A DNA stretch of 43,346 nucleotides from Actinomycetes bacterium (lineage in GTDB: Bacteria > Actinomycetota > CALGFH01), in contig DASQWY010000169.1 in NCBI GenBank assembly GCA_035640005.1, positions 1-43,346 of the forward strand, written 5' to 3'. Positions 429-38,947 of the stretch are shown piece after piece. The notes under the pieces were generated by a model. That model had not been told where the DNA came from, did no database searches, and saw nothing but the letters and a program-made list of their open reading frames with translations. Within the stretch, counting starts at the first letter, position 1. Every line of letters begins with the position of its first letter. The translations under genes and the position numbers were made by a program.

Positions 429-1108
429 TGTTTCACGTGAAACATCGCGACGTGGCGATCCTGGACGAGCTCGAGCCGTACTACCGAGCCGCGGTGGAGC
501 GCGGCTTTCTCGGGCCCCGAGAAGGCGAGCGCCTACGGGAGCGTCACCTCAACGACGCCTTGGGGCTCGCGACCATCCGTGCCCCGAAGCCGGGTGAGCA
601 GTGGGCAGACCTCGGTTCCGGCGTCGGGCTGCCCGGGCTCCCTCTGGCCGCCGCCTTCCCGTCCACCTCGTTCACGCTCGTGGATGCCCAGCGACGGCGG
701 CTCGACTGGGCGGCCGACACCGCCCAGGCCCTCGGCCTCGGCAACGTCAGCTTCGTCCATGCACGCCTCGAGGACTATGGTCGCGGGCCGGCGCGAGGGC
801 GGTTCGATGTGGCGACCGCCCGCGCGCTCGGCCCGCTCCCGGTCGTCGCGGAACTCGGTCTTCCGCTCCTCCGGATCGGTGGGCTGCTGATTGTCCCGCG
901 CGGACAGCCCACCGCCGAGGAGTTGCAACGTGCCGGCCGCGCCTGCGCGTTGCTCGGTGGACGCCTCGAACCAGGTGTCCACAATCCCAGCTCGCCGATT
1001 GACCGGGTCTCCTTCGTCGTTATCATGACCAAGATCGCTGCGACCTCCCCCCGCTTCCCCCGGCGATCGGGTGTGCCGGCGCGAACTCCGCTCGGCCAGG
1101 GGCGTTAG
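428..1108 (+). CDS. rsmG: 16S rRNA (guanine527-N7)-methyltransferase RsmG (GidB)
   Basis: 226 aa from ATG 428 (TTG 425 is the ORF-track alternative). SAM-binding glycine loop ADLGSGVGLPGLPLA and overall GidB-like sequence. Conserved jag-rsmG-parAB order. Confidence 0.9.
   Translation: MFHVKHRDVAILDELEPYYRAAVERGFLGPREGERLRERHLNDALGLATIRAPKPGEQWADLGSGVGLPGLPLAAAFPSTSFTLVDAQRRRLDWAADTAQALGLGNVSFVHARLEDYGRGPARGRFDVATARALGPLPVVAELGLPLLRIGGLLIVPRGQPTAEELQRAGRACALLGGRLEPGVHNPSSPIDRVSFVVIMTKIAATSPRFPRRSGVPARTPLGQGR
429..444. promoter_or_regulatory. parS: parS centromere-like site 1 (perfect)
   Basis: tgtttcacgtgaaaca is a perfect 16-bp palindrome identical to the canonical parS consensus TGTTNCACGTGAAACA. 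It spans the rsmG start codon and is read as MFHVKH. Confidence 0.9.
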
Positions 1109-1295
1109 CGGCGTAGGGCCGCCCGCCACGCAACGGCCGATCGAGTGCCGCCAGGGTGGTGTTGCGGGTTGCAGAGGGTCAGAGCGACTGGATGGGTGTG
1201 GCGGCTTATGGCCGCACACCGGTCCTCCCCGTCGACCGTGCCCAGCCTGCCGGGCGGTACCACGAGGCATCGGTGACGAGGGAGGCGATCAAAGG

Positions 1296-4200
1296 ATGGG
1301 CGGGCTGTTCGCCAGGGTTCTGACCGTGCTGGGACTCCGGCGCCGCCGTCGGCGAGCAGGTGGAGAAGCACTCGACCGGCACGGTCCCGAGGCCGAGGTC
1401 GTGGTCCGTCAACAGGCCAGCAATCTCACCCTCGATCCGGACCGCCGGCCAGGCACGATCGCGACCGAAGACCAGGACGGTGAGACATCACCCGTGCGAA
1501 CGACCGAGGAGTCGACCCGCCATCCGGCGACCCATCCGATGCAGGGCGGGCCTCGACCAGATCCGATCTGGGGAGCCGATGCCCCGGCGGACATCGCCAG
1601 GTGGCAGGCGGCTGGGTCGCCGCCGGGCGAGCGCTCACAGCAGGAGTTCCGCGGTGTGCCGGGTTCCGACGACCTGTCGCCCGCGACTGAGGCCGGTCCA
1701 GGGGTTCCAGTCGCCGGCGACGCTCCACGGATCGGCTCTCCGGGGTCAGCCACCGGTGCGTCCGGGCCAGCTGGTCACGGTACGGGAGGGGCCGAGGACG
1801 GTCCCGCGGCCGGCCCGTCAGGCACCACCGCAACCGACCCTGGGCTCTCCGGCGCCGACACCGCGGGTGAGGAAGCGAGCGGAGTGCCTTCGGCGGCCGC
1901 TGTCTGGTTCGGCAGGCCTTCGCAGGGGAGCGGGTCCGGCACCGCTTGGCCCGGTTGGGACGAGTCGTCTTCACCGCCGCCCGTGCCAGCCGCCGGTCGA
2001 ACGACCGAGGAGTCAGGGCAACAGGGGCTCGCCGGCAGCGGCGGGAACACCGAGTCGTTCGAGACCTCCTGGCTTCGCCACCTCGGCGGGGGGCATTCCG
2101 GCGGTGACCGCGACCTCCCCTCCGGATCCGACGAAGGTCGGGGCGGGGCGGTGGATGCGCGAGCCCCGGTCGATGAGGGTGGACCGAGGGCTTCGGGCGC
2201 ACCCACAGGTCGGGCGGCGCCCAGCGGCACGCCGGTACCTGGGGACAGGGGCGGGTCCGGGGTTGAGGGGGCATCGCGGACCGGGGATGAACCCTGGGGG
2301 GCGCGGGTGCCTCGGGATGAGAGCGGATCCGGGCCCGCCGGGTCACCGGAAGGTGGTGGCGACCCCGGGAACGTGAGGAGGCCCAGGGATCGGGTCGGGC
2401 CCGGCCATGTGCGGATGCCTGAGGCTGGCGGTGGACCCGAAGATGGCCCCGGACCCGAAGATGGCCCCGGACCCGGGGCTGGGGGCGGACCCGGGGATGG
2501 CGGCGGACCCGGGGCTGGGGGCGGACCCGGGGCTGGGGGCGGACCCGGGGATGGCGGCGGACCCGGGGCTGGGGGCGGACCCGAGGCTGGTGGCCGCGGA
2601 GCTGCGCCGGTAACCGGGGGTGGGGTCGGATCCCAGGCGGCGCGGCCTTTGGCCGACGCTGGTGGGCCCAAGGCTGCGTGGGCACCCGAACGTGGGGGCG
2701 CATCCGGAGTTGCGTGGGCACCAACCGATGCAGGTGGGCACGGGGCTGAACGGGAACTGGACGGCGAGAGCGCGCCAGGTGGGGATGGATCCGAAGGTGC
2801 GGGGGGACCGAGGGGTCGGGATCGACCAGCTACCGGTGGCCCACAAGGTGGTCAGGGATCGATGGCCTGGTCTCGCGGGCGACCCGAGGCCGCGGGCTCC
2901 TCTGCTGCCGCCGCCGGAACGGGTACCGATCTCCCGGCTGCCACCGAGTTCCCTCCCGAGGCCGGTGTGGCCGGCGGCCCGCCGGCCGGCGGCCAGCGAT
3001 CCGCAGCTCGGACGGCGGAGTGGGAGCCTTCGGGAGGACGTGGTGAGGATCCCGCCGAGGAGGGCGGGAACCGGCAACGAGTTGACGAGACCGATGCCTG
3101 GAGCTGGTCGGGGCACCAGCCCGGAGAACGCGGTGAGAGAGCTTCCGGTGGCGACCCCGAGTCGGCAGGGTCGAGTTGGTGGACCGAGCCGTCCCTGCCG
3201 ATGAGTTTGCCCCCGGGCGACCGGCGGATGGCCGCGGTCGAGGAGCGTTCCAACCCGCAGGGCCCGGAACCCGACGCCGACGAATCGGCGCCCGAACCGG
3301 TAGTGCCCGACCCGACCTGGCCTCAGCTCTTCCGGACCGCCTCCTCGGCATCCCAATTGTCGGGCCAGGGCGCCACGGACGCCGATCGGCCAGCGACCCC
3401 ACCTGATCGACAGGCAACTGCCGGGTCGACCCAGGACGGTGTCAGTGGCGCCTTCACGCACCAGGCCGCCGACCCAGGGTCGTCCTCGCCGTGGACCTTC
3501 AGCGACCAGCACCCGACGACCGGGTCTCGGTCCGAGATACCTTGGGACGCAGCCTCCGGGGGTTCGCCCGCGGGGGAGCGCACGTCCGCCGACGACACCG
3601 TTCATGATAGCGGTGCGGCTCCCGCGCCGAGGGACCTGACCGGCCGACCCGATGCTCCTGACGGCCGCCAATGGGATCGGCGCCGCGGCGTCGGTGGGGG
3701 CGTCCCGGCCAAGCCGTCACGGTCGTACCCGGACGCCGACGGACCCGCGGCGGACTCGGGTGCGGCGCCGCCCGACCACCCGGCCGGACCCTCAGTAGAT
3801 GCCGCGCCCGCTTGGGCGCCGCCGGCGAGCGCGGCGGACCAGGGTGGGTCCAGGTCGAGCGCCTGGGGAGTGAGGGGAGCGGGGGAGGCGGCGACAGGCG
3901 CAGGGACTTCCGGGCAGGCCGAGTCCGATTTCGCTGAGCAGGCGCCGGCAGCTCCCGACCACCGGGAAGCCGGGGTGGCGCGCGGAACGGTGGCCGGGAC
4001 GGAGGTCAGCGGCGGCGAGTTGGACGAGGATGCGGAGGGCGTCGCCTGGGTCGGGGACGCGGGAGCCGGTGTGGAGACAGCTCGGTCGGGCCAGGCCAAC
4101 CGTCTGACCACGGCACCCACGACCCGAGAACCGGGTGCGGGTACTGAGGGGGGTGGTGTGGCCCCGTCTGGGGGCGGCGTGGATGGCGTGCTCTCGGGTC

Positions 4201-4349
4201 TCGGCCCACGTGGAGTATCAGGCCGAGAGCCCGAGACGGAGGACGCGACCTCGACGGGACGGGGTCGGCAGCCAACTGCGAGCGGGACAGGCCGGGCAGG
4301 CGACGACGATCTGGCCGAAAATGGCGCGGTCGGGCTTGAGGGCGCCAAG
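1296..4349 (+). CDS. Stop-free, in-frame low-complexity region (Gly/Pro/Ala/Asp/Glu/Ser/Thr/Trp-rich) continuous with parA; either a giant N-terminal extension of ParA or an untranslated leader
   Basis: Plus frame 3 has no stop from 1071 to 5522. First ATG after the rsmG stop is 1296, with GGGAGG 10 nt upstream; it gives MGGLFARVLTVLGLRRRRRR followed by acidic, disordered-looking sequence. Competing ORFs (plus frame 1; minus strand in three different frames) are Arg/Pro-rich junk. Third-position GC looks lower than in neighbouring genes, so translation is unproven. Confidence 0.4.
2433..2594 (+). repeat. Nine tandem copies of an 18-nt unit inside the parA-upstream ORF
   Basis: ggacccgaagatggcccc x2, then alternating ggacccggggctgggggc / ggacccggggatggcggc variants, ending ggacccgaggctggtggc. 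In frame this reads GPEDGP GPEDGP GPGAGG GPGDGG and so on. Units are contiguous with no spacers. Confidence 0.9.
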
Positions 4350-5522
4350 ATGGCACCCGGCCGTAGCGAGACGACCAAGTCAGGGCCTCCGTCCGCGGCC
4401 TCGACGGAGGAACAGTCGAGCCCTTCGGTTTCACGTGAAACGGAGGGAGGCGGTGGAGTGAGCGAACACACGGACAGCCCACCCGCGACCGAGGACGAGG
4501 CGGCTGTCGCGGTGCGGGAAGCCGCGCTGCGAGCCGCGACGCAAGCAGGCGTTGCTCCGGGCGCCGAGCAGAACCTTCCACAGTCAGATGGCGGATCGAC
4601 CGACGATGTTTCACGTGAAACCTTCCTCGATCCGCCGCCAGCGGATGATCTGCCCCGAGTCGATACCGAGACCGCAGCTCGCAACGCTCGGGTCAACTTC
4701 CGGATCGCGACGACAGCGGGAGCCGGTCCTCGCCGAGTTCTCGCCGTAGCAAACCAGAAGGGCGGGGTTGGGAAGTCCACCACAGCGGTCAACCTCGGCG
4801 CGTATCTTGCGCTGGCTGGAGCCCGAGTCCTCGTCATCGACCTCGACCCCCAGGGGAATGCGTCGACCGGGCTCGGGCTCGACCACCGAGCGATCGAGCC
4901 CTCCGTCTATGACGTGCTCAGCGGCAGTACACCAGCAACCGATGCGATCCGATCGACCTCGATCCGGCGGCTTCACGTCCTGCCGAGCACCATCGACCTC
5001 GCCGGGGCAGAGGTGGAGTTGGTCAGCGCGATGTCGCGAGAGAGCCGGCTGCGCCGGGCGCTGGACGCCATTCACCACCACTACGACACGGTGCTGGTCG
5101 ATTGCCCTCCCTCGCTTGGCCTCCTGACCGTCAATGCCTTGACGGCCGCCGACGAACTGCTCATCCCAATCCAGTGCGAGTACTACGCCCTGGAAGGGCT
5201 CGGTCAGCTCCTTCGCAACGTCGAGTTGGTCCGCTCCAACCTCAACCAAGAGCTCCGGATCGGCGGCATCGTGCTCACCATGTACGACGGCCGTACAAGG
5301 TTGGCCGAGCAGGTGGTTGAGGAGGTCCGCAGGCACTTCTCCGATCTCGTGTACCAGACCGTCGTGCCGCGCAGCGTCCGGCTCTCCGAGGCGCCTGGGT
5401 ATGGTCTGCCGATCGCCCTCTACGATCCGCTCTCGCGCGGTGGCATCGCCTACCGTGATCTTGCGTTCGAGCTCGCGGAGCGAAATGGATTACTCGCGCC
5501 AACTGCAGAAGGAGCCACCTGA
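4350..5522 (+). CDS. parA: Chromosome partitioning ATPase ParA (Soj); start codon uncertain
   Basis: The C-terminal ~260 aa are clearly ParA/Soj: deviant Walker A KGGVGKST (from 4758), [25 protein letters not shown] 5520-5522 overlaps the parB ATG. In-frame ATG 4350 is used here; GTG 4458 and GTG 4512 are alternatives. There is no ATG/GTG/TTG in frame between 4513 and the Walker A. The frame stays open upstream to 1071. Confidence 0.85.
4427..4442. promoter_or_regulatory. parS: parS-like site 2
   Basis: ggtttcacgtgaaacg: the central 14 bp gtttcacgtgaaac is a perfect palindrome, 14/16 to consensus. Read in frame 3 as VSRET. Confidence 0.75.
4607..4622. promoter_or_regulatory. parS: parS-like site 3
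   Basis: tgtttcacgtgaaacc, 15/16 to the parS consensus, 180 bp after site 2. Read in frame 3 as VSRET. Confidence 0.8.
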
Positions 5523-6661
5523 TGCGACGCCGTGGCGGTCTTGGCCGTGGACTTGAAGCACTCATCCCCCCGAGCGGCACGGCTGACGATGAACGGACGC
5601 CGGCAGGTAGCGAGGCCGCGACGGGGCCGTCGCCGGCAGCCGATGCCGACCGGCTCCAGCCAGGGGCTCCAACGTTCCGGGAGCTTCCCCTTGACGCGAT
5701 CGACCGCAACCCACGACAGCCGCGAGAGGCCTTTGACGAGGAGTCGCTGGCCGAGCTGGGCGCAAGCATCCAGGCAGTCGGCGTGCTCCAGCCGATCGTG
5801 GTCCGACCGCACGGTGACCGGTGGCAGCTCGTCATGGGGGAACGGCGTGTCCGGGCCGCCGGGGCTGCCGGACTCGATCGCATTCCCGCCATCGTCCGGA
5901 CGACCGAGGACGACTACCTGCTCCGGGACGCGCTGCTCGAGAACATCCACCGCGACGACCTGAACCCCCTCGAGGAGGCGGCCGCGTACGAGCAGTTGCT
6001 CACGGACTTCGACGTCACGCACGAGGAGCTGGCCACCCGCCTCGGTCGCAGCCGACCAACCATTACCAACACCATCCGGCTGCTGCGCCTCCCGGGGAGC
6101 GTGCAGCGCCGGATCGCCGCCGGCACGCTGGTCGCCGGTCACGCGAACGCGATCCTGTCACTCAAGAGCGCCGAGCAGCAGGAGCGCCTGGCCGACCGGA
6201 TCGTGGCCGAAGGCCTCACCGTCCGCATGACCGAGGAACTCGTGCGCCGCGCCCGACTCGGAGAGCCCGTCCTGGAGGCCGGCGAGCGGCGGGTCCGCCC
6301 ACGTCCCCTGATGCAGGCACCGGGCATGGCCGGCCTGGCCGAGCGGCTCTCCGACCGACTGGAGACGCGGGTGCGGGTCCAGCTCGGGAAGCGGAAGGGG
6401 AAGGTGCTGATCGAGTTCGCCACCCTCGACGATCTGCAGCGGATCTGTGACGCCATCGGTCTCGACCGGGATGACACCACAGCCTCGAGGGGTACCGGCA
6501 TCGGTCCACGGCCAGGCGCCCCCGGGCCGGCGGACCAGCAGCCTCCCTCCGTTTCAAGCCCGAGCGGCGCAGGAGCGGACGCTGCCGATAATGATGATCG
6601 CGCGCCGAGGGTGGACGGCGAGCCCAGCGACCAGCAGAGCCGGGCGACGGCTCGCGTCTGA
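5522..6661 (+). CDS. parB: Chromosome partitioning protein ParB (parS-binding)
   Basis: 379 aa. N-terminal [10 protein letters not shown], ParB-box [45 protein letters not shown], and a low-complexity C-terminal tail. Confidence 0.93.
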
Positions 6662-7067
6662 GTCTCGCGCGACGCGGAACCGTCGTCGGGTGGTCTCGGT
6701 CGCCGGGCCGCGCACGCCGCCGACCCGGGCGCCTTGATCGACCCTCACTGCTCGCCGGCGACGTTCCGACCATCGGCAACGTGGGGTTCGCCTGCCGAGG
6801 TGGCATTGGGTCGGCTCCGGTCGAGCACGGGGGATGGCGAGACGGCTCGCGGGCAGGTTGAAGGCGAAGGCCAGCCGACGCCTCTGAGGCGACCTCGCTG
6901 TTGGTGGTTATCGCATTCGTAGAAGCATCAGTATCTGGAGAAGCACCTATTGGAGGGCACGGCCGGGAATTTGTCGCCTGGAACGGGCATCTCGGATGTA
7001 AAGGGTTATTAGGACTATACTGCTGATGATGTCAATCGATACCCCAATGGTTGATACAGGTCTGCTA

Positions 7068-7972
7068 ATGCCCTGTCAGGTGGAGCGCTCACTATTTGTT
7101 GACGGAGCGGCAGTAGCCGGCGAGTCGGTCGAGGATCCTCCTCCGGCGCTCTTGTGCCAGGTGAAGGGTCGGAGGTTGTCGTTCCAGGTCTCGACCCAGT
7201 CGCGGATGTCCTGGGCAAGCGCTTGGACGCTGCGGTGCGTGGAGCGGTGGAGCTTCTTGGTGGTCAGGGCTGAGAACCATCGCTCGACGAGGTTCATCCA
7301 CGACCCGTAGGTGGGGTGAAGTGGAAGTGGAACCGGGAGTGGCGCAGTAGCCACTCGCGCACGGCCGGGGTCTTGTGGGCGGAGACGCTGTCGAGGATGA
7401 CGGGTACGTCGAAGTCGTCGGTGACCTCGCGATCGACCTTGTTCAAGAACGCGATGAAGTCCGCAGCGGCGTGGGACTTGCGCAGGTCGGTAATGACCAT
7501 GCCGGTGGCGACCTCCAGGGCGGCAACCAGGTCCAGGGTGCCGTTGCGGACGTAGTCGTGGGTGGCCTTCTGCGGGGTGGTGGACAGCATCGGCAGGATC
7601 GGTGCGGACCGGTTGAGCGCTTGGATCTGCGGTTTCTCGTCGACGGCGTGGACCGCGGCCGCGACCGGTGGGACAGGTACAGGCCGACTAGGTCGCGGAT
7701 CTTCTCGATCAGGTTCGGATCGGGCGAGATCGACCAGCCCTCCAGCCGCTCCCCGGCGAACCGGTGGCGCCACCCGCCGACCGTGACCCTGTCACAGCCG
7801 AGCTCGTCGGCGATCTCGGTGTTCGGCCTGCCGTCCGCGCAGGCCAGCACGATCCGCGGCCGCAACGCCAACGCCTGCGACGACGAACGCCGTCGCGACC
7901 AGCGCACCAGCGTCTCTCGCTCCCTATCGGTCAGCTCGAATCGCGACCGTCGGATCAACCTGACAGGACACC
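7068..7972 (-). mobile_element. Defective IS630-family insertion sequence (~0.9 kb)
   Basis: Terminal inverted repeats tgccctgtcaggtgga (7069-7084) and tcaacctgacaggaca (7955-7970; reverse complement tgtcctgtcaggttga), 14/16 match. TA dinucleotides abut both ends (7066-7067 and 7973-7974), as expected for IS630/Tc1 TA target duplication. The interior encodes only a broken transposase. Confidence 0.8.
7092..7958 (-). pseudogene. IS630-family DDE transposase, frameshifted and internally deleted
   Basis: Pieces lie in different minus frames, implying at least three frameshifts:
- RSRFELTDRERETLVRWSRRRSSSQALALRPRIVLACADGRPNTEIADELG...GERLEG, joined directly to DPNLIEKIRDLVGLYL
- VDEKPQIQALNRS...HDYVRNGT...VILDSVSAHKT...HFHFTP
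- SWMNLVERWFSALTTKKL...WNDNLRPFTWHKSA
- EEILDRLAGYCRSVNK, then stop
The segment normally found between the HTH and the DPxxIEK motif seems absent. Confidence 0.8.
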
Positions 7973-9087
7973 TAGGAGTCGGCCAGCCACGCCAGCAAGC
8001 GGCCCTGCGACCAGCAGCGGCCAATGGCCTCGGCGTGCAGCGCCGACCGGTCCAACACCGCCAGGCCGATGATGCTGTGGCCGGAGGCGCGGCGATCGCC
8101 AAGTGTCGGTATCGCCGGTGCGACCCCGACCCCCTCCGCTGACACCCACGCCACCGCCCGCCCGGCCGCCGCGTCCTCGAGGCGGTGCAGGAAGCGCAGG
8201 CGGCGCTCGAGCGGGAAGCGCGAAAGCGCCCAGGTCGTGGTGACGACCGGCAGGGCGTCCGCGGGCACACGCGCGAACGCCTCGGGCAGCACCTCGACGG
8301 CGTCACCTTGCAGCAGCAGCGGAGGGGCCGTCGCCGCCAACGCCATCTCCGCTGCCAGCATCGCGACCCGCTCCGGCTGATCCGGCCACAGGCAGGCGCG
8401 CAACCATCGGGCGTCATCCACGTCGGTCACGTCGACCGGATCAAGGTCGACGCCGACCCGGGCGACGACCTCGGGCATCGCCCGGCTCGGGATGGGCCGG
8501 TCTCCCACGATCGAACACGACAGTTGCACCGGAGATGACGGGTCGCCCAGCGATTGTCCGTTGCTGTAGGTGATGCCAACGCGATCGACGTTGAGGTTGA
8601 GCCCAGCCGAACAATCCACGTCGACCAGACCAACCGCGTTCGCGCCGACCCGGCGCGCCGCCTCGGCAACGGCCGGATACAGCACGGCGCAGCGTCCGGT
8701 CTGGTTGGTCCGCGTCCGCCGGCGCACGGCGATGGCCACCACCGAGTCGGTCATTCGCAGCAGCGTGTCGATCGCCGCGCCAGCGGCAGCGTCGCCGTCC
8801 GCAGCGGCATAGGCCGCGGCAAGCGCCGGGGCGCGTCCGGCCAGGGCGAGGTCGTGCAGCGCGGCGAGGATCACCGTGGGGTGCCGCTTGCGCGCCGGCG
8901 CCGCCTCGATGGCGCGCAGCGCCTCCTCGGACTCACTCAGGGCGACGGCGACGCGCTGGTACAGCGGCGATGCTTCGGCGGCGTCGACCTCACCGAAGCG
9001 TCGGTACACCCCAGCGAGTGTGCGGGCCCTCCCCACGGGTACGGCGCTTCCTGCGGTCGGTCCTGGCATCCCGACGATTCTAGCCAT
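7972..9087 (-). CDS. DUF2332-family protein
   Basis: Motifs I recall for DUF2332: YRRFGEVDAAEASPLYQRV, RTNQTGRCAVLYPA, LVDVDCSAGLNLN, VGVDLDPVDVTDVDDARWLRACLWPDQPERV. Start ATG 9087 (ATG 9069 alternative); the ORF-track TTG 9189 lies inside the IS fragment. The TAG stop (7972-7974) coincides with the TA at the IS630 junction. Confidence 0.7.
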   Translation of the reverse strand: MARIVGMPGPTAGSAVPVGRARTLAGVYRRFGEVDAAEASPLYQRVAVALSESEEALRAIEAAPARKRHPTVILAALHDLALAGRAPALAAAYAAADGDAAAGAAIDTLLRMTDSVVAIAVRRRTRTNQTGRCAVLYPAVAEAARRVGANAVGLVDVDCSAGLNLNVDRVGITYSNGQSLGDPSSPVQLSCSIVGDRPIPSRAMPEVVARVGVDLDPVDVTDVDDARWLRACLWPDQPERVAMLAAEMALAATAPPLLLQGDAVEVLPEAFARVPADALPVVTTTWALSRFPLERRLRFLHRLEDAAAGRAVAWVSAEGVGVAPAIPTLGDRRASGHSIIGLAVLDRSALHAEAIGRCWSQGRLLAWLADS

Positions 9088-16116: not shown

Positions 16117-16785
16117 TCACTCCTGGTTCGGATGATCAGGCTCCTTCGATTCCGACGCTCGCGCGCGCGTCCCGGTTCCCGGGCCGACCACGTGCAGGCC
16201 GCGCCGGACCGGCTCCACGCCCGGGCTGCCCGGCGGCTGGGGAGCCTCGCCGCCCTCCAGCTCGCCGGCGAGCGCCAGGCGGCCGCGGTAGACGCGGCTC
16301 TTCACCGTGCCGACCGGCACCTCGATGATCTGCGCGGCGTCGGCGTACGGCAGGCGGTACAGGTCACAGAGGACCAGCGCGACCCGGAACTCCTCCGGCA
16401 CCCTCGCCAGCGCCGCGTGCACCACCACGGCGCTGGCGACCGGCTCGCTCGGGTCGCCGCCCGTCGGCGCCGCCCGGTCGGCGGCCTCGGGGTCCAGCGG
16501 CAGCGCGCGCGCCCTGGTCCGGCGGCGCGCCTGGTCGGTCGCCGCGTTCACCGCGATCCGGTAGAGCCAGGTGGAGAACGCGGCCGCCTGGCGGAAGGTC
16601 GACGCCCGCCGCAGGGCGGCGAGGAACGCCTCCTGGGTGGCGTCCTCGGCGTCCTCCCGGTTGCCGAGGATGCGAAGGCACAGGCCGTACACGCGGCGTT
16701 CGTGGCGGGCGACCAGCTCGCCGAAGGCGTCCTGGTCGCCACGCAGGTGGGCGGCCAGCAGGCCTTCGTCGCTCCGCTGGCTCAC
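16117..16785 (-). CDS. ECF (group 4) RNA polymerase sigma factor, SigM-like by position
   Basis: 222 aa from GTG 16785. Region 2 AFGELVARHERRVYGLCLRILGNREDAEDATQEAFL...STWLYRIAVN; region 4 EFRVALVLCDLYRLPYADAAQIIEVPVGTVKSRVYRGR. The GTG overlaps the kinase stop (GTGA). Confidence 0.9.
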   Translation of the reverse strand: MSQRSDEGLLAAHLRGDQDAFGELVARHERRVYGLCLRILGNREDAEDATQEAFLAALRRASTFRQAAAFSTWLYRIAVNAATDQARRRTRARALPLDPEAADRAAPTGGDPSEPVASAVVVHAALARVPEEFRVALVLCDLYRLPYADAAQIIEVPVGTVKSRVYRGRLALAGELEGGEAPQPPGSPGVEPVRRGLHVVGPGTGTRARASESKEPDHPNQE

Positions 16786-18272
16786 GACCGCAGGCTGGCT
16801 TCCGCAACGCCCGCCTGGTACTTGCCGCCCGCCCGCGGCAGGCGCGTGAACCAGACCAGGTAGAAGCGGTGGCTCGCGCCGTCGAGGTCGACGTTGACCT
16901 GCTGGCCGGCGTCGGCCTGCTGCTTGACCGGCTGGCCCCAGCCCGCCAGCGCGTCGGGCACCTGGTCGGCGGCGTAGACCGACAGGTCCGCGCCGGGCTG
17001 GGTCAGGGTCAGGCGGAGCTGGTGGGCGGCGCGGGCCTCGGGAAGCTCCAGGATCAGGCCGACGCCCGGCTTGAGGGCGCCGAGGTTGGGGTTGTTGTAG
17101 TGCTCGGTGCTCCAGGCCGTCCCGGGGTCGCGGTCGATCGCGTTGCCGAGCTCGCTGTTGGACTCGCTCCCGTCCCCTGGCGGCGGGTCGAACGCCAGGG
17201 CCTGCGAGAACGAGATGGGCTTCGCCCCGGCGGTGGTGCCGGTGGCCTTCGTCTGCTTGGACTTCGCGCCGCCGCCGAACAGGTCCTTGACCCCGCTGCT
17301 CAGGGTGAGCCCGACCACCACCAGGATCCCGGCCAGGACCACCAGGGCGAGCGTCCAGCCCAGCCAGCGGCCCTCGTTGCGCAGGAAGCCGCGCGTGGGG
17401 ACGACCTCCTGCTCCTGCACCGGCTGGGTGGTATCGACCAGGCCGGCGGGCGGGGACCCGTCCGCGCCGGCCGCCACCCGCGCCAGCGCCGCGGCCATGG
17501 CCCTGGCGGTCGGGAAGCGGTCGTCGGGGTCCGGCGCCATCGCCCGCAGCACGACCGCGTCCAGCTCGCGGGGGACCCCGGCCACCAGCGCACGGGGCGG
17601 GACCGAGGCCACCGGGCCGGGCCCTGGCGGCCGCCCGGTGAGCATCTCGTACAGGCAGGCCCCCAGGCCGTAGACGTCGGTCCTGCCGTCCACCCGTCCG
17701 CCGTCGACCTGCTCGGGAGCCAGGTAGCCGTCCGCGCCGAGGATCTCCCCGGTGCGGCTGGGGTCGTCGTCGGTGGCGGCCCGGGCGATGGAGAAGTCGG
17801 CCACCTTCACGGTGCCGTCGTTGGCGAGCAGGATGTTGCCCGGCTTGAGGTTGCGGTGGATCACCCCGGCCTGGTGGGCGTAGTCGAGGGCGACGGTGAC
17901 CTCGCTCGCGAGGCGGGCCGCCTGGGCCGGCGGCAGCGGGCCGTGCCGGTCGAGCACCTCCCGCAGGGTCGCCCCCTCGACCAGCTCCATCACGATGTAG
18001 GCGACCCCGCCCTGCTCGCCCGTGTCGTAGAGGGCGACCACGCTGGGGTGGGTGAGGCGCGCGGCGTTGACCGCCTCCTCGTGGAAGCGGGCCTTGAAGG
18101 TCTCGTCGGCGGCCAGCTCGGGGTGGAGCACCTTGACGACCACGTCCCGCCCGAGGATGCGGTCGTGGCCCCGCCAGACGCTGGTCATGCCGCCGGTGGC
18201 GAGCTGCTCGACGAGCTCGTAGCGCTCGGCGAGCAGCCGAGGCAGACCGGAGCCGACGTGGGACATGCTCAT
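16782..18272 (-). CDS. Membrane Ser/Thr protein kinase homologue with degenerate catalytic motifs (probable pseudokinase) and an extracytoplasmic C-terminal domain
   Basis: 496 aa. Hanks-type fold (VVVKVL, HEEA, LAPEQ), but the catalytic loop is HRNLKPGN (Asn codon aac at 17850-17852), DFG reads DFS, and the glycine loop is ATGGMTSV. TM segment WLGWTLALVVLAGILVVVGLTL. About 150-aa external domain. Confidence 0.85.
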   Translation of the reverse strand: MSMSHVGSGLPRLLAERYELVEQLATGGMTSVWRGHDRILGRDVVVKVLHPELAADETFKARFHEEAVNAARLTHPSVVALYDTGEQGGVAYIVMELVEGATLREVLDRHGPLPPAQAARLASEVTVALDYAHQAGVIHRNLKPGNILLANDGTVKVADFSIARAATDDDPSRTGEILGADGYLAPEQVDGGRVDGRTDVYGLGACLYEMLTGRPPGPGPVASVPPRALVAGVPRELDAVVLRAMAPDPDDRFPTARAMAAALARVAAGADGSPPAGLVDTTQPVQEQEVVPTRGFLRNEGRWLGWTLALVVLAGILVVVGLTLSSGVKDLFGGGAKSKQTKATGTTAGAKPISFSQALAFDPPPGDGSESNSELGNAIDRDPGTAWSTEHYNNPNLGALKPGVGLILELPEARAAHQLRLTLTQPGADLSVYAADQVPDALAGWGQPVKQQADAGQQVNVDLDGASHRFYLVWFTRLPRAGGKYQAGVAEASLRS

Positions 18273-18339
18273 GGCGTGAAATACATCGGGGCATTGGACC
18301 CCGGGGGTCGCGACCCCCGGAAGTCTATCAAGGGCAGGC

Positions 18340-19625: not shown

Positions 19626-21311
19626 TCAGGGGGAGGTGCGGCGCGCCCGCCGGACCAGGCCAACCAACAACCCGAGCTCCTCGATCCGGAGCAGGCGGGC
19701 CACGCCCAGGTAGGTGCCGAGCCCGAGGGCCACCCCGGCGACGACGGTGACCAGGTCGCGGCCGAGCCCGGGCTGGCCGACCCCGCCGAGCGCGCGCACC
19801 AGCAGGGCGATCACCAGGTACATCACCAGGCCGGCGGCGAGCATGCGGGCGACCGCCCGGAGCACGCGGCGGCCGTCCAGGCCGCCGATCCGCCGCGACA
19901 GGGAGGCGAGCAGCAGGGCGGAGCCGACCGTGTAGGCGGTGGCGTGGCCGAGCGCCAGGCCCGCGATCTTCCACGGCCTCGGGAGCAGGAAGAACAGCAG
20001 CAGGTCCACGACCACGTTGGTGCCGGTCGACACGATGTTGAGCAGGAACACGGTGCGGGTGTCCTGCAGGGCGTAGAAGGCGCGCAGCAGCAGCTGGAAG
20101 GTGGAGAACGACACCAGGCCGAGCACGAACACCTCGAGGACCCGGGTGAGCAGCTGGGTGCTGGCCCCGGTGACCACCCCGTGCTCCAGCAGCAGCCGCA
20201 CGATCGGGCCCGCCAGCGCCAGGTAGCCGAGGGCCGCCGGCAGCAGCACGGCCGCGGTCAGCCGCACCCCGCGCGACAGCGTCGCCCGGAACGCGTCCCA
20301 GTCGGCGGCGACCGCGTCCTCGCTGAGCGGCGGCAGCAGCGCGGTCATCACCGACACCGCGAACACCCCGTGCGGGAGCTGGAAGAAGATGAAGGCGGTC
20401 GTGTAGGCGGTGTAGCCGCCCTGGATCCCGTAGGCGAGGATCGGGATCACCAGGTAGCCGAGCTGGTTCACCACCACGTACCCGACCGTGTAGGCCGACA
20501 GCGTGGCCATCTTGCGGATCGCCGGGTCGCGCAGGTGCCAGACCAGGTGGAAGCGGAAGCCGATGCGGCGCAGGAACGGCCACTGCACCATGGTCATCGC
20601 CACCACCCCGGCGGTGGTGCCGAGGCCGAGCAGCAGCTTCTGGCCGGTGGTCAGGTCGCCGACCTGCGGCACCCGCTGGCCCACCAGCAGGTGGAAGGCG
20701 ATCGCCACGGCCACCACGGTCAGGTTGTTCAGGATCGGGGCGAACATCGGCACGCCGAAGCGCCGGTTGGCGTTGAGCAGCCCGGTCATCACCGAGCCGA
20801 CCCCGTAGAACACGATCTGCGGCATGAACATGGCCAGCAGCTGGCCGCCGAGCCGCTGCGCCTCGGCCCGCTCGGCCGGGCTGCCGCTGTGGATGTAGAG
20901 CTTGATGATCCACGGCGCCAGCAGCACCCCGAGGACCGCGAGCAGGCCGAGGACCACCATCGCCAGGGTCATCACGGCGCGGGCGACGTGCCAGGCCTGG
21001 CGTGGGCCGCGGGTGCGCCGCACCTCCACGAACACGGGCACGAAGATCGACGTCAGGATGCCGCCCAGCACCAGCTCGTAGATGATGTTCGGGGTGGTGT
21101 TGGCGACGTTGTACACGTCGGCCAGGCGGCTCTCGCCCACGCCGATGGTGGCCACCAGCACCGTGACGCGCAGCAGGCCGGTCACCCGCGACAGCAGCGT
21201 GCCGGTGGCCATCAGCGCGGTCGAGCGGGCCAGGCTCGGCTCGGCCGGCCGCCCCCGCCCGGGACCGGCGGCCGGCGGGTCCCTCGGGGGGGTGGACCGT
21301 GGGGAGCTCAT
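19626..21311 (-). CDS. murJ: Lipid II flippase MurJ (MviN)
   Basis: 561 aa from ATG 21311. GTLLSRVTGLLR, NTTPNIIYELVLGGILTSIFVP, multiple TM helices. The ATG overlaps the upstream stop (ATGA). There is no kinase-like C-terminal domain. Confidence 0.9.
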   Translation of the reverse strand: MSSPRSTPPRDPPAAGPGRGRPAEPSLARSTALMATGTLLSRVTGLLRVTVLVATIGVGESRLADVYNVANTTPNIIYELVLGGILTSIFVPVFVEVRRTRGPRQAWHVARAVMTLAMVVLGLLAVLGVLLAPWIIKLYIHSGSPAERAEAQRLGGQLLAMFMPQIVFYGVGSVMTGLLNANRRFGVPMFAPILNNLTVVAVAIAFHLLVGQRVPQVGDLTTGQKLLLGLGTTAGVVAMTMVQWPFLRRIGFRFHLVWHLRDPAIRKMATLSAYTVGYVVVNQLGYLVIPILAYGIQGGYTAYTTAFIFFQLPHGVFAVSVMTALLPPLSEDAVAADWDAFRATLSRGVRLTAAVLLPAALGYLALAGPIVRLLLEHGVVTGASTQLLTRVLEVFVLGLVSFSTFQLLLRAFYALQDTRTVFLLNIVSTGTNVVVDLLLFFLLPRPWKIAGLALGHATAYTVGSALLLASLSRRIGGLDGRRVLRAVARMLAAGLVMYLVIALLVRALGGVGQPGLGRDLVTVVAGVALGLGTYLGVARLLRIEELGLLVGLVRRARRTSP

Positions 21312-23392
21312 GGCGAGGCGCCCTGCCCGGCCCGGCCGTCCTCGGCCGCGCGCCGGCGCCGCCTGCCGCGCCGCCACCACAGCAGCAGGAAGCCGGCCGC
21401 GCCACCGGCCAGGGCCAGGGCGACCCGGTTGAAGGCGGTCGACACCAGGGTCACCTCGGCCTCGGTGATCTGCCGCTGCTGGTCCTGGGTGAGCACCTGC
21501 ACGGCGATCCGGAAGGTGCCGGTGGTGCGGGTCTCGACCTGGACCAGCTGGGTGGTCCGCCGCCCCGGCTCCAGCACGAACGGCTGGCTGGTGGCGGGCA
21601 GGTCGACCCGCGGCGAGATCAGCCGCAGCACCACGGTCATCCGCTGGCTGCCGGCGTTGGTGACCGTGACCGGGATGGTCCCGCGGCGGGCGGTGAGGGT
21701 GGCCCGGCTCGGCTCCACCCGGACCCGGCGGTAGACGGCGCGGATGCCGCTGTCGACCGCGCGGATGAAGCCGCGGCCGCGGGGCCGGGCGGCCGCCGGG
21801 CGCCAGTCGCTCGACTCGGCGATGCGCAGGTCGCGGTCGAAGCCGTCGCTGGGCGGGTAGTCGGCGCCGACGGTCCGCAGGAAGCTGGCCAGGTTGGCGC
21901 GGCGCTGGTCGACGCCGCGCAGGTAGCTGGCGGGCAGCGCGGCCGCCGCCTCGGCGGGGGTGACCGGGGCCAGCCGGCGGACCTGGTGGTCGGGGCCCTC
22001 GGGCACGCGGCCCGCCAGCGTGGTGGCCCGCTCCAGGGTCAGCCAGGGGGCGGCGGCGAGCCCGCGGACCAGCGCCCGGAAGAACCCGGGGGCCGGCCGC
22101 CACACCTGGGGCGGAGCCAGCAGGATGCCGCGGGGCGAGGGGCTGTTCGGCCGTTCCAGCCAGGTGACCGCGGTCTCGGCCAGCACCCGCTGGGCCCAGG
22201 CGGCCGGCTCGCTGGTCGCCCGCTGGTCGGCGAGGGCCGCCTGCAGGCCCTGGTCGGGCACCAGGGCGCGCGCGGGGGTGGCGTCGCCGGCGCCGAGGCC
22301 CACGGTGGCGTTCTGGGTGGTGGGGGCGGTGCTCGGCAGCAGGGTGGGGTCGAGCACGACCACGTCGGTGCCGGTGTTGGCCAGCGTCCGCAGGGTGGCG
22401 CCGTCGACCGGTCCGCTCACCGGCCATGCCAGGCCCTGGTCGGGCGTGGTGCCAAGCGCCGACTGCAGCAGCTGCCGCCCCTGGAAGACCTGGTTGGTCG
22501 CCTCCAGCTCCAGCCCGGCCCTGACCAGGCCGGGCAGGTCGGCGGTGGCGTAGGGGAAGGCGCTCGGCTGGTTGGCGCTGGCCGCCTCCCGCAGCCGTTT
22601 CAGGAACAGGCTGGCGCCCTCGGAGCGCGGGTCGCCCGCGGCGACGGTAGTGGTGCCAGCGCCCTGCCGCAGCCGCCAGGCGCCCGCCATGGCGGCGGCG
22701 TCCTCGGCCAGCAGCGCGTCGATCACCAGCGTGACCTTGGGCGCCTTCGGCCGGTCCAGCTCGGCCGCGATCGCCCCGAGGGGCCCGGTCGGGGCGAGCT
22801 GCGCGGCCAGGCCGTCGTCGACGAACAGACCCTTGGCGTCGCGGTGGGTCGGCTCGTGCAGCGGGACCAGCATCGCGACCTGCAGCCGGCTGGCGGCCTC
22901 GGCGCGCAGCACCACCACGAAGGTGGTCAGGCTGGCCGTCACCGTGCCGGCGTCGCTGCCCGCCCGCAGTTGCACGGCGAGCGGCAGCACCGCGCCGGCG
23001 CCGTCGCCGCCGAGGCCGGGCGGCAGGGTGACGGTGCGCGCCTCCAGCCTGCTGGTGGCGCCGGCGGGGACCTCGGCGAGCGCGGGCCGCCAGGGCGGCT
23101 CGAGCGGCCGGCCGGCGGCCGGCCCGGCCGGAGCGGCCAGCAGGCTGGCCAGCGCCGAGCGGGTCTGCACGGGGGCGCCGAGCCGCGCGTCGACCTGCAG
23201 GCCGCGCAGGGCCGCCTGGCCGCGGTTGCGGACGGCCAGCTGGTAGACCAGCCGGTCGCCGGGACGGGCCCACGGCGAGATCCTGACCAGCAGCAGGTCG
23301 GCGGTGGCCTGCTGCTGGGCGGCCGCCGGCGCCACAGCCGACGCGGCGACCGTCCCGAGGACCGCCAGCGTGGCCGCCAGCCGCCGGATCAC
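21308..23392 (-). CDS. Conserved actinobacterial exported/membrane-anchored protein, Rv3909-like (I believe the DUF6049 family)
   Basis: 694 aa from GTG 23392. Signal-like VIRRLAATLAVLGTVAASAVAPAAAQ; C-terminal TM anchor ALALAGGAAGFLLLWW plus RRGRRRRR. It occupies the NUDIX-to-murJ slot held by Rv3909. Confidence 0.7.
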   Translation of the reverse strand: MIRRLAATLAVLGTVAASAVAPAAAQQQATADLLLVRISPWARPGDRLVYQLAVRNRGQAALRGLQVDARLGAPVQTRSALASLLAAPAGPAAGRPLEPPWRPALAEVPAGATSRLEARTVTLPPGLGGDGAGAVLPLAVQLRAGSDAGTVTASLTTFVVVLRAEAASRLQVAMLVPLHEPTHRDAKGLFVDDGLAAQLAPTGPLGAIAAELDRPKAPKVTLVIDALLAEDAAAMAGAWRLRQGAGTTTVAAGDPRSEGASLFLKRLREAASANQPSAFPYATADLPGLVRAGLELEATNQVFQGRQLLQSALGTTPDQGLAWPVSGPVDGATLRTLANTGTDVVVLDPTLLPSTAPTTQNATVGLGAGDATPARALVPDQGLQAALADQRATSEPAAWAQRVLAETAVTWLERPNSPSPRGILLAPPQVWRPAPGFFRALVRGLAAAPWLTLERATTLAGRVPEGPDHQVRRLAPVTPAEAAAALPASYLRGVDQRRANLASFLRTVGADYPPSDGFDRDLRIAESSDWRPAAARPRGRGFIRAVDSGIRAVYRRVRVEPSRATLTARRGTIPVTVTNAGSQRMTVVLRLISPRVDLPATSQPFVLEPGRRTTQLVQVETRTTGTFRIAVQVLTQDQQRQITEAEVTLVSTAFNRVALALAGGAAGFLLLWWRRGRRRRRAAEDGRAGQGASP

Positions 23393-34875: not shown

Positions 34876-35166
34876 ATGCGTCACTACGAAGTCATGCTCA
34901 TTCTCGACCCCAGCCTGGAGGACAAGGACGTCAAGGCTGCGGTCGACCGCTTCCTGACCACCGTGACCAGCCGGGGCGGCAAGGTGACCGGGATCGACCA
35001 CTGGGGCAAGCGCCGCTTCGCCTACGAGATCCGCCACATCGGCGAGGGCTACTACGCGGTGGTCGACCTCGAGGCCGAGCCGGCGACGGTCGACGAGCTG
35101 TCGCGGGTGCTGTTCCTGGCCGACAACGTCATCCGGCACAAGGTGGTCCGGCCCGAGGCCGCTTAG
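34876..35166 (+). CDS. rpsF: 30S ribosomal protein S6
   Basis: 96 aa, MRHYEVMLILDPSL..., with GGAGGTG upstream. Confidence 0.95.
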   Translation: MRHYEVMLILDPSLEDKDVKAAVDRFLTTVTSRGGKVTGIDHWGKRRFAYEIRHIGEGYYAVVDLEAEPATVDELSRVLFLADNVIRHKVVRPEAA

Positions 35167-35284
35167 GCCGCCGGGTCGCGCCGGCGACGTCTCTCCTTCC
35201 CCGCTGGCCCGTGCGACGGGCCGTAGGTAACCGATTCACGCCCGGCTCCGAGCCGGCGCGGGATGCGAGTGAGGTGGTACTCCA

Positions 35285-35734
35285 GTGGCAGTCGACAACC
35301 AAGTGATGCTGGTCGGCAACCTGACCGACGACCCCGAGCTGCGGTTCACGCCCAACGGGGCGGCCGTGGCCAACTTCCGCCTGGCCGTCACCCCCCGGGT
35401 GCGCGAGGGCGACACCTGGAAGGACGGGGAGACCTCGTTCTTCCGCATCAACGTCTGGCGGCAGCAGGCCGAGAACGCGGCCGAGACCCTGCAGAAGGGC
35501 GCCCGCTGCATCGTGGTGGGGCGGCTGCGGACCCGGTCGTGGGAGACGCCGGAGGGCGAGAAGCGTTCGGTGACCGAGGTCGAGGCCGACGAGCTCGGCC
35601 CCAGCCTGAAGTTCGCCACCGCCAAGGTCGAGCGCTCCAACCGCAGCGGCTCGGGCGGCGGCGGCGGCGACTGGGCGGGCAGCGCGGCCGCCGCGTCCAA
35701 GGGCGGCCAGTTCAACGACGAGCCACCGTTCTAG
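35285..35734 (+). CDS. ssb: Single-stranded DNA-binding protein
   Basis: 149 aa. OB-fold N-terminus, Gly-rich linker, acidic tip NDEPPF. Confidence 0.95.
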
Positions 35735-35782
35735 ACGAGCACGCATGGACCCGGGCCCGGCCCGGGCCCGGAAAGGCACCAC

Positions 35783-36016
35783 ATGCCCAAGACAACCTTC
35801 CAGCGCAAGCCCAAGCGCAAGTTCTGCCAGTTCTGCGCCGAGAAGCAGGACTACATCGACTACAAGGACGTGAACCTGCTGCGCAAGTTCATGAGCGACC
35901 GGGGCAAGATCCGCGCCCGCCGGGTCACCGGGAACTGCGCCCAGCACCAGCGCGACGTCGCGGCCGCGATCAAGAACGCCCGCGAGATGGCGCTGCTCCC
36001 CTACTCGATCCGCTAG
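35783..36016 (+). CDS. rpsR: 30S ribosomal protein S18
   Basis: 77 aa. CQFCAEK...[26 protein letters not shown]. Confidence 0.95.
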
Positions 36017-36025
36017 CGAGGAGCG

Positions 36026-36472
36026 ATGAAGGTCATTCTGAACCAGGAGGTCCGCGGGGTCGGCGCCCCCGGGGACATCGTCGAGGTCTCCAACGGGTAC
36101 GGCCGCAACTACCTGCTCCCCAGGAACCTGGCCCGGCTGGCCACGCCCGGCGCGGTCCGCCAGGCCGAGGGGATCCGGTCGCGCCGGGTCGCCCGCGAGG
36201 TCGCCGACCTCGAGCAGGCGCGCACGATCGCCGGGCACCTCGAGTCGCTCCGGGTGGTGATCCCGGCCAAGGCCGGCAAGGAGGGCCGCCTGTTCGGGTC
36301 GATCACCACCCCGCAGATCGTCGAGGCGGTGGCCCGCACCGGCGGCACCACCATCGACCGGCGCCGCATCCACCTCGACGCCCCCATCAAGTCGGTCGGC
36401 ACCCACCGCCTGACCGTCCGGCTGCACCCGGAGGTCGAGGCGACCGTGAACCTGGAGGTCGTGCCCGCGTAG
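36026..36472 (+). CDS. rplI: 50S ribosomal protein L9
   Basis: 148 aa. MKVILNQEVRGVGAPGDIVEVSNGYGRNYLLPR. Confidence 0.95.
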   Translation: MKVILNQEVRGVGAPGDIVEVSNGYGRNYLLPRNLARLATPGAVRQAEGIRSRRVAREVADLEQARTIAGHLESLRVVIPAKAGKEGRLFGSITTPQIVEAVARTGGTTIDRRRIHLDAPIKSVGTHRLTVRLHPEVEATVNLEVVPA

Positions 36473-36505
36473 CGGAGGACGCCGGAAGCAAGGAGAACCA
36501 CCGCC

Positions 36506-38929: not shown

Positions 38930-38947
38930 CCTGGAGGGCGTAGCTCC

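Follow-up and report, generated by a model that had tools for sequence, protein, structure and literature searches.

ParA proteins are small (~30 kDa) diffusing motors for the positioning of chromosomes and other cargo. Their anchoring at the cell pole or membrane varies by phylum and normally depends on separate partners, such as DivIVA, PopZ/TipN, HubP, Scy, and bactofilins. In the type Ia plasmid ParA proteins (P1 ParA and F SopA), the N-terminal extension is a folded DNA-binding domain of ~100 amino acids (aa) for autoregulation. In Actinomycetota, the N-terminal extension of ParA is 20-25 aa long and takes part in DivIVA binding (PMC9298525), and the extension of Mycobacterium smegmatis ParA gives polar anchoring through this partner. 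In this study, we analyzed the parA gene on a 43,346-nucleotide (nt) stretch of an uncultured soil bacterium of the Actinomycetes (contig DASQWY010000169.1 of GenBank assembly GCA_035640005.1; the whole stretch is called the window below), which very likely encodes a ParA of 1,408 aa with the ATPase confined to the last ~260 codons.

The rsmG-parA-parB operon near parS and the deviant Walker A ATPase are shared with the chromosomal (Soj-type) ParA of Actinomycetota, as is the N-terminal region in which a parS-encoded VSRET peptide is followed by EDEAA..REA. The deviant Walker A motif KGGxGK[ST] at positions 4752-4781 (all positions are on the plus strand unless stated otherwise), the ParA/MinD fold assigned by Pfam, the location directly upstream of parB, the three parS sites, and the rsmG-parAB cluster agree with those of ParA/Soj. 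The size of 1,408 aa does not, since ParA/Soj has ~250-350 aa and a short extension at most. An earlier analysis of the same DNA by eye and without database searches (the sequence-only reading) had put known actinobacterial extensions at tens of residues; compared with the M. smegmatis protein, the disordered extension of the present family has 650-1,150 aa. The type Ia plasmid ParA proteins are similar in that a region is added N-terminal to the ATPase, where it gives a second function; however, theirs is a folded helix-turn-helix domain, whereas the giant ParA has no Pfam domain in its extension and the added length is ~10 times greater. In our full-text literature searches, we found neither a long disordered N-terminal extension nor a membrane-targeting helix at the N terminus described for any ParA, and the conserved layout with a putative giant tether has not been described before for ParA.

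Plus frame 3 forms an open reading frame (ORF) at 1071-5522 (1483 aa), as the sequence-only reading stated, and the stop-to-stop opening already begins at 1029. The coding sequence that begins with ATG 1296 ends with its stop codon at 5522. In the 1,408-aa product, the Pfam matches are AAA_31 (E = 1e-63), CbiA (4e-27), and MipZ (9e-12); the ParA/AAA_31 domain covers aa 1146-1390, and there are zero Pfam matches in aa 1-1145, which bears out the assignment of only the C-terminal end to the ATPase. The ATPase domain is at 4731-5519 and has a dN/dS (ratio of nonsynonymous to synonymous substitution rates) of 0.05-0.08. No Rfam family matches anywhere in the window.

Coding evidence in the parA extension

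The sequence-only reading had taken the stop-free length as an argument for translation. The opening is real, but its length is a weak argument in this DNA. The GC content of the window is 73%, and over ~1,040 codons the other five frames of the extension interval contain no more than 5-21 stops each. Frames without stops also run very long elsewhere on the minus strand: that at 16120-18294 has 526 aa upstream of a sigma-70 r2/r4 domain, that at 19629-23273 has 712 aa upstream of a MurJ domain, and that at 35132-41017 is a 1962-aa ORF without a Pfam match. All three are plainly junk and provide an internal control; the first two stretches, at 24-25% Arg and net charges between +100 and +134, are shadow or junk ORFs from this composition. 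Because stops are few in the other frames and long junk ORFs are present, ORF length alone is unconvincing in this window, and the case for translation is made by amino acid composition and by comparison with related loci. The frequency of long junk ORFs would also fit an alternative in which the 3.2 kb is open by accident and goes untranslated as a leader or intergenic region, and the sole product is a canonical ParA from GTG 4458 (354 aa) or ATG 4350 (390 aa).

Word-indexed searches with the full protein and with a profile of the extension were swamped by low-complexity candidates and returned only 3 and 2 proteins, respectively. The family emerged only when 1.84 billion representative proteins were searched exhaustively with a profile: 34 clusters (50% identity level) score 520-1293 bits, compared with at most 399 bits for ParA proteins that match in the core only. 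The first three relatives, found by homology search, are ParA proteins from metagenomes; they are 914-1095 aa long, and their cores share 74-76% identity with that of the window. The contigs L081 to L083 have the gene order jag-rsmG-parA-parB of the window, and this order was seen in all relatives. Loci L084 to L090 were added by a metagenome scan with the extension motifs, and a divergent subgroup 2 is made up of P0029, P0031, P0032, P0036, and P0037 with loci L104 and L105. The rsmG-giant parA-parB layout is found in at least nine metagenomic loci related to the window and in the 34 clusters; the called lengths in the family reach 1281 aa, and the database name of its members, where there is any, is "chromosome partitioning protein." The identities within the clade are 83-86% for the ParA core, 62-74% for ParB, and 69-72% for RsmG. 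Outside the clade, among the matches listed for the 80 GTDB species sampled, the identities are at most 67% for ParA (cores 54-67%, best 62-67%) and at most 58% for ParB. By these identities, the giant-ParA loci form one clade that is well separated from the 80 species sampled. The ParB similarity and a Mycobacterium-like sigM-murJ-pcnA neighborhood in the window place the organism no more closely than in the class Actinomycetes.

The parA frame contains 1497 stop-free codons in the window, 1164 in L081, 1152 in L082, 1045 in L083, and 1187 in L085/L088, whereas the other frames contain 4-26 stops. In L104 and L105 (1026 and 1067 aa; GC 0.67 and 0.66), the 647 and 688 extension codons include no stops, compared with 4-25 in the other frames, and the extension frame is open in five independent assemblies of the window's own species. 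Across the related loci, at 65-73% GC, the stop-free extension spans 650-1,150 codons, and every other frame has 4-28 stops. At 80 other parA loci, many of them as GC-rich, the frame before the ParA match in tblastn stays open for no more than 339 codons, and in most cases for fewer than 200. An accidental opening is difficult to reconcile with a frame that stays open in at least nine diverged loci with GC contents down to 65.6%.

Insertions and deletions in the extension respect the reading frame. MAFFT alignment of the DNA alone places 16 gaps between L081 and L083 (84% identity); each is a multiple of 3 in length, and none falls outside the extension. When the phase test was limited to the extension, 12 of 12 gaps between L081 and L083 and 3 of 3 between L084 and L085 were multiples of 3; we calculate the chance of 15 in-frame indels out of 15 as (1/3)^15, or ~7e-8, and this result in the well-aligned pairs also counts against an untranslated leader. 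Only pairs with at least 74% identity were used for the test. In pairs below ~70% identity, 33-59% of the gaps in the DNA-only alignment are multiples of 3, and these counts were set aside because alignments at such divergence are unreliable.

The mismatches between the L081 and L083 extensions are distributed over codon positions 1, 2, and 3 as 117, 129, and 188. By the Nei-Gojobori method (NG86), dN/dS amounts to 0.43 for the extension, where dS is 0.44 and thus unsaturated, to 0.27 for the ~100 residues that precede the core, and to 0.05 for the core itself. Comparison with the related rsmG-parA intervals, which the sequence-only reading had suggested as a check, thus gave a frame open in all of them, without stops or frameshifts, at a dN/dS of 0.43. 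In addition, seven short islands have a pN/pS (ratio of nonsynonymous to synonymous differences per site) of 0.00-0.19 at a pS of 0.29-0.77. Since the islands were picked for amino acid conservation, the informative figure is the high pS, which together with the low pN/pS indicates conservation as a peptide and not as DNA; such abundant synonymous change is not expected of an untranslated leader. Four of these islands in the window are QDGETSPV (1473-1496; pN/pS 0.13), DPIWGAD.P.D..RW (1560-1604; pN/pS 0.15), WTEPSLP (3180-3200; pN/pS 0.09 at pS 0.77), and PDPTWPQLF (3306-3332; pN/pS 0.19), and the DPIWGAD segment is invariant in seven loci with synonymous changes. At the level of sequence comparison, these patterns show purifying selection on the extension in the whole clade and constraint on the helix and motifs as protein.

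The composition of the extension leads in the same direction. In the window, it contains 7.6% Arg, 13.9% Asp plus Glu, no Cys, and 11% hydrophobic residues and has a net charge of -62, whereas the other five frames of the same DNA contain 1.2-2.6% Cys. Four of them contain 16-25% Arg and have net charges of +125 to +216; the remaining frame, rich in Pro and Ser and close to neutral, has 2.1% Cys and 5 stops. This agrees with the earlier description of the competing ORFs as junk-like and of frame 3 as acidic. The extensions of seven loci (~5,400 codons) are likewise free of Cys; they contain 14-17% Asp plus Glu and 4-8% Arg, and their net charges range from -45 to -98. The non-parA frames of these loci contain 0.7-4.2% Cys, and 4 of 5 are Arg-rich with a strongly positive charge. 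Because the other frames of the same DNA lack the zero-Cys, negative pattern, base composition does not make it, and this too is against an accidental leader.

The leader alternative also draws on the GC content at the third codon position (GC3). The values at codon positions 1, 2, and 3 are 0.79, 0.72, and 0.72 in the extension and 0.70, 0.47, and 0.78 in the core, and the GC3 of the parA core, rsmG, and parB is 0.78-0.82. The low GC3 that the sequence-only reading had held against translation is correct; however, it is common to the extension of every family member and is thus a regional property and not a sign of noncoding DNA. Furthermore, the internal Shine-Dalgarno (SD) sequence and start at GTG 4458 are strong, conserved, and located at the position of the Streptomyces ParA Met, and one pipeline annotated exactly the 354-aa product (L097). 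In addition to the comparisons described above, the most conserved peptide of the extension is at its far 5' end, ~3 kb before 4458. We consider this alternative very unlikely. The open frame, the in-frame indels, the substitutions, and the composition together make it very likely, from sequence comparison, that the ParA extension is translated as protein across the clade; the first three, with dN/dS below 1, favor the preference of the sequence-only reading for a translated ~1,400-aa ParA with a giant disordered extension.

If the true genes were antisense, the plus frame would be the shadow of three ORFs of 413, 390, and 411 aa. Long minus-strand ORFs are indeed present at 1426-2724, 2343-3671, and 3602-4837 and were called as genes on L096 (1674-5316, corresponding to window ~1100-4840 on the minus strand), but the three have no Pfam match. 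Of the minus frames, two are rich in Arg and carry net charges of +125 to +216, the other is the Pro/Ser-rich frame with 2.1% Cys and 5 stops, every relative has 4-15 stops in its minus frames, and the mismatches are highest at the third position of the plus frame. An antisense origin is hardly credible on these grounds.

The 18-nt tandem repeat at 2423-2594 encodes GGGPG[AD] units (9.6 copies of variable number according to Tandem Repeats Finder); the sequence-only reading had noted this repeat but with a left boundary at 2433. Three short-read contigs of the window's species stop at or inside the repeat, and three other same-species assemblies (L096, L097, and L100 among the contigs compared) are 90 nt (30 codons) shorter in this region and still in frame. 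By unit number, the window has about 6 and these assemblies about 1. The difference is either real copy-number variation or assembler collapse. Such breaks and the variable repeat number could be taken as signs of an assembly artefact, i.e., a chimeric join or a collapsed repeat that removed a stop or a gene boundary. Nevertheless, many independently assembled samples, drawn from three data sources, have the same single ORF, relatives without the repeat still have one ORF, and the repeat variants differ by exactly 90 nt, so that an artefact of this kind is extremely improbable.

N-terminal helix, acidic linker, and putative tether

The N-terminal hydrophobic/amphipathic helix with its poly-Arg cluster (1296-1355; MGGLFARVLTVLGLRRRRRR) is kept in all loci and is the best-conserved element of the extension, with a pN/pS of 0.13 at a pS of 0.46. 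The sequence GGGAGG-N10-ATG that the sequence-only reading proposed as a start is present, with GGGAGG at 1280-1285, 10 nt before ATG 1296. The conserved helix reads GGFLSRLLAALGLRRR / KPGFFKRLLRAFGLGK. In subgroup 1, the helix has the form GG[FL][LF]S[RK]LL.ALGLR[RK]R; the window version is GGLFARVLTVLGLRRRRRR, and the start peptide of the window reads MGGLFARVL...RRRR. In subgroup 2, the helix M..SKPG[FL][FM]KRLLRAFG[LI]GK (that of KPGFFKRLLRAFGLGK) follows a canonical ATG or GTG. A signal peptide or transmembrane segment at the N terminus was considered and rejected, as the hydrophobic run is ~11 residues long and precedes the basic cluster, and no 19-residue Kyte-Doolittle window of the extension exceeds 0.62.

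Noc, a ParB-family protein, has an N-terminal membrane-targeting peptide. Escherichia coli MinD's membrane-targeting sequence (MTS) is KGFLKRLFGG (PMC5471200), and that of the bactofilin BacA is the N-terminal peptide MFSKQAKS (PMC12448750). The helix and poly-Arg of the giant ParA resemble the MinD MTS in sequence: like MinD, which belongs to the ParA superfamily of ATPases, the giant ParA has a terminal, putatively amphipathic/basic peptide G-F-[LF]-x-[RK]-L-[LF]. Its hydrophobic moment over 11 residues is 0.42-0.45 in the family compared with 0.27 for the E. coli MTS on the same scale. By analogy, the two proteins may share the logic of a nucleotide-dependent ATPase coupled to a surface. 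On the other hand, the MTS of MinD is C-terminal, directly after the ATPase, whereas the helix of the giant ParA is N-terminal and separated by ~1,000 residues, and no amphipathic/basic helix was found at its C terminus. MinD has MinC and MinE as partners, whereas the giant ParA neighbors rsmG and parB, its core is ParA by Pfam and operon, and no min genes are among the called genes of the family loci. According to domain and gene context, the giant ParA is not a MinD. BacA and Noc provide a further analogy, as a short N-terminal peptide of hydrophobic and basic residues places a chromosome-organizing protein at the membrane, as proposed here; however, they belong to other protein families, and their peptide adjoins a folded domain without a giant linker. 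The mycobacterial ParA, in turn, ends in a DivIVA-binding peptide, and the giant ParA apparently ends in the MinD MTS-like helix instead.

The helix is followed by an acidic Gly/Pro/Ala/Ser-rich linker of ~1,020 aa (1356-4426), which is probably disordered as judged from its composition and the lack of a Pfam match. In the family, the linker has 650-1,150 aa and contains 83-87% G/P/S/T/A/E/D/Q/R/K and 11-15% hydrophobic residues. The window linker has a net charge of -4 to -12 per 100 aa over its full length, and no transmembrane-like segment was found in it by a hydropathy scan. The motifs of subgroup 1 are QDGETS, DPIWGADPPD..RW, VGWF, SE.LSAERP, PELIEAGMVYVDPDPEIG, PWTEPALP, and PDP.WP.LF, and those of subgroup 2 are SWF, PPGL[ED]PG..EI.RRL, and ENIS. 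No family member is longer or more divergent than the copy in the window, which has retained the helix, QDGETS, DPIWGAD..RW, WTEPSLP, and PDPTWPQLF; at the position where its relatives have ELIEAGMVYVDPDPEIG, the alignment places a GPEDGPGPEDGPGPG stretch followed by the GGGPG[AD] repeats.

We propose, as the on-balance probable reading, that the 1,408-aa ParA consists of an N-terminal helix anchor, a polyanionic chain of ~1,020 aa, and an ordinary actinobacterial ParA. The long parA would be translated from ATG 1296 to give, first, the 20-residue hydrophobic/amphipathic helix and poly-Arg; second, ~1,020 polyanionic, Cys-free residues with a few Trp/Pro motifs (QDGETS, DPIWGAD..RW, WTEPxLP, and PDPxWPxLF); and third, the region with two in-frame parS sites and the deviant Walker A ATPase. 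The helix may anchor all or some of the ParA molecules to the cytoplasmic membrane, the cell pole, or a polar scaffold. The acidic chain, repelled by DNA and anionic lipid, would be a long flexible spacer that lets the anchored ATPase reach the nucleoid and the ParB-parS complexes, on which the ATPase end would act as usual, and the Trp/Pro motifs could dock partner proteins. The extension would thereby replace or extend the anchoring that mycobacteria obtain from their DivIVA-binding ParA N terminus, and with a second product from GTG 4458, the cell would hold both anchored and free ParA. The particular assignment of the extension as a membrane or pole tether is possible but tentative.

A translated extension need not be a tether. 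It might instead compete with the nucleoid, as an intramolecular DNA mimic, for the basic DNA-binding face of ParA and so tune the dynamics of the ParA gradient, or it might form a condensate or scaffold at ParB-parS through Trp/Pro stickers. ParA dimers bind DNA nonspecifically according to the literature, and both the negative charge of every member, spread evenly along the chain, and the sparse conserved aromatic motifs within the Gly/Pro/Ser spacer would suit these roles. However, neither role requires the terminal hydrophobic/basic helix, which is the best-conserved element, and the length (650-1,150 aa) and sequence of the linker drift freely, as those of a spacer would. Its charge and its freedom from Cys, on the other hand, persist. 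We regard the DNA-mimic or condensate roles as unlikely.

Several observations weigh against the proposal of a translated, anchored giant ParA. All family members are known only from metagenome contigs of at most 11 kb. Gene callers disagree on the extent of parA, and the public annotations of this locus exist in four incompatible versions, among them products of 886 aa, 354 aa (L097, starting at GTG 4458), and 163 aa with three antisense ORFs of 413, 390, and 411 aa (L096). The GC3 of the extension is below that of the core in all loci. The window copy has lost or blurred the islands VGWF and ELIEAGMVYVDPDPEIG, and the few strain-level single-nucleotide polymorphisms in its extension are all at codon positions 1 and 2, which suggests relaxed constraint in the window's lineage. 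In L081 and L083, there is an in-frame TGA before the element AGGGAGGCG, which is kept upstream of the helix in both subgroups, and then no ATG, GTG, or TTG up to the helix; the ATC that would have to serve as the start there is out of frame in L104. The putative membrane binding is based solely on the resemblance to the MinD MTS and the hydrophobic moment calculation. Finally, the AlphaFold2 (AF2) run on P0002 is uninformative, since with a four-row alignment the mean pLDDT (predicted local distance difference test) is 34.8 and the ATPase core is low too, so that the lack of secondary structure in the extension cannot separate disorder from missing information.

If the proposal is correct, the ParA of this clade brings its own MinD-like anchor, which would be a new, built-in solution to anchoring, and few conserved disordered regions of bacterial housekeeping proteins would be as long as its extension. 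The four incompatible annotations, including three phantom antisense genes, suggest that such proteins are systematically missed or truncated in high-GC metagenomes.

Start codons and transcription signals

The helix shows only synonymous change, so it must be translated in L081 and L083 too. The sole start candidate there is a noncanonical ATC, 8 nt past AGGGAGG, a codon that translation table 11 permits for initiation. The arrangement TGAAGGGAGGCG(G/A)-N5-7-ATC precedes the helix in L081 (2654-2720), L083 (3684-3750), L082 (1898-1970), L104 (2633-2690), and L105 (2304-2350). The ATC is in frame in L105; in L104, it opens an upstream ORF of 12 codons that ends in ATGA on the main ATG. A possible hairpin with an anti-SD strand (CCGCCTC with GAGGCGG upstream of the start) was discarded, as its folding z-scores of -0.35 to +0.32 are no better than those of shuffled sequences.

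A promoter-like TTGACC-16 nt-TATCAT at 999-1026, inside the 3' end of rsmG, is a candidate promoter of the long parA mRNA. The interval 900-5700 contains no other sigma-70-like match, and the site recurs in all seven loci checked, but its conservation proves little because it is located inside the conserved RsmG coding sequence. No terminator-like site was found in 900-5700. The last ~110 nt of rsmG (window 999-1108) are near-invariant as DNA, synonymous sites included, even between the subgroups, which suggests a constraint beyond RsmG coding, e.g., a parA promoter or 5' untranslated region.

The canonical ParA start seems to survive inside the giant ORF. The ordinary N-terminal region of ParA is found there in the order parS-1 (VSRET), EDEAA.AVREA..RAA, parS-2 (VSRET), AARNARV.FRI, and ATPase, as the VSRET peptides in the parA frame are parS sites (TGTTTCACGTGAAACA). 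The first, parS-1 (GGTTTCACGTGAAACG; 4427-4442), reads VSRET in frame and is kept in all family members; the second, parS-2 (TGTTTCACGTGAAACC; 4607-4622), has the same in-frame reading. The conserved helix between the two (4491-4550) belongs to the usual N-terminal region of actinobacterial ParA and is the first helix of the AF2 model. The shorter starts listed by the sequence-only reading (ATG 4350, GTG 4458, and GTG 4512) all exist; at GTG 4458, moreover, an ATG or GTG that follows a strong SD sequence is conserved. This SD (GGAGGGAGG; 4442-4450) is followed after 7 nt by the GTG (4442-4460 in total), a candidate start for a 354-aa ParA of canonical length. The codon aligned to the GTG is ATG in L081, L082, L083, and L085; at the protein level, the position is M in subgroup 1 (V in a few) and M in subgroup 2 (I in P0030), directly before EDEAA. 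In locus L005 of Streptomyces, a Met lies in the ParA frame 4 codons past the parS-encoded VSRET; this Met is the annotated start of Streptomyces ParA. The conserved internal start with its strong SD and the Streptomyces Met make the 354-aa isoform plausible, although the existence of two ParA isoforms, the long form and the 354-aa form from GTG 4458, stays somewhat doubtful on sequence grounds.

A more elaborate version appears quite unlikely and is offered as speculation: one gene would give two ParA proteins, a giant anchored form whose tether spans the gap between envelope and nucleoid and a free form from the SD and start 16 nt past parS, with ParB on parS setting their ratio. If true, the two-form ParA would be a self-contained switch for origin anchoring and segregation without a counterpart in studied bacteria.

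A further kept site, AAC-ATA-TCG (NIS; window 4347-4355), is located ~90 nt upstream of parS-1. Aligned sites are present in L081, L082, L083, L085, L104, and L105. The middle codon is ATA in five loci of 66-70% GC, although high-GC genomes normally use this Ile codon rarely. In the window (ATG at 4350-4352) and in L104, the site reads ATG, and a purine-rich SD-like sequence lies upstream. The site may serve as a third start or act at the DNA level.

Neighboring features of the locus

The upstream neighbor of parA is rsmG (425-1108), which encodes the 16S rRNA m7G methyltransferase; its orthologues have the GidB Pfam match. A third, perfect parS is located at the jag/rsmG junction (429-444), at the start of rsmG, where it is read as MFHVKH. 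A parS at this junction is present in every related locus (L081, 1682; L082, 941; L083, 2709; L085, 638; L104, 958; and L105, 328), so that three parS sites per locus bracket the giant ORF. Downstream, the ATG of parB (5522-6661) overlaps the parA stop by one base (TGATG), and there are ParB_N/HTH_ParB Pfam matches. Directly after parB, at 6750-8420 of the window, the GC content falls to 0.55-0.62, and fragmentary ORFs of a DDE_3 (IS630-like) transposase indicate an insertion sequence remnant. In the related locus L104, ddl follows parB where the window has this remnant.

Long in-frame N-terminal stretches of 200-670 aa, unrelated to those of the giant ParA family, were also observed in ParA ORFs of other Actinomycetota (L007, 9305-10000; P0092, P0098, P0100, P0108, and P0110). 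The ParA ORF in a metagenome-assembled genome of Acidimicrobiaceae has a Pro/Ala/Glu-rich N-terminal stretch of ~220 aa, and there are predicted ParA proteins of 720-946 aa, some with several in-frame VSRET (parS) peptides. These stretches may be real extensions or artefacts of gene calling.

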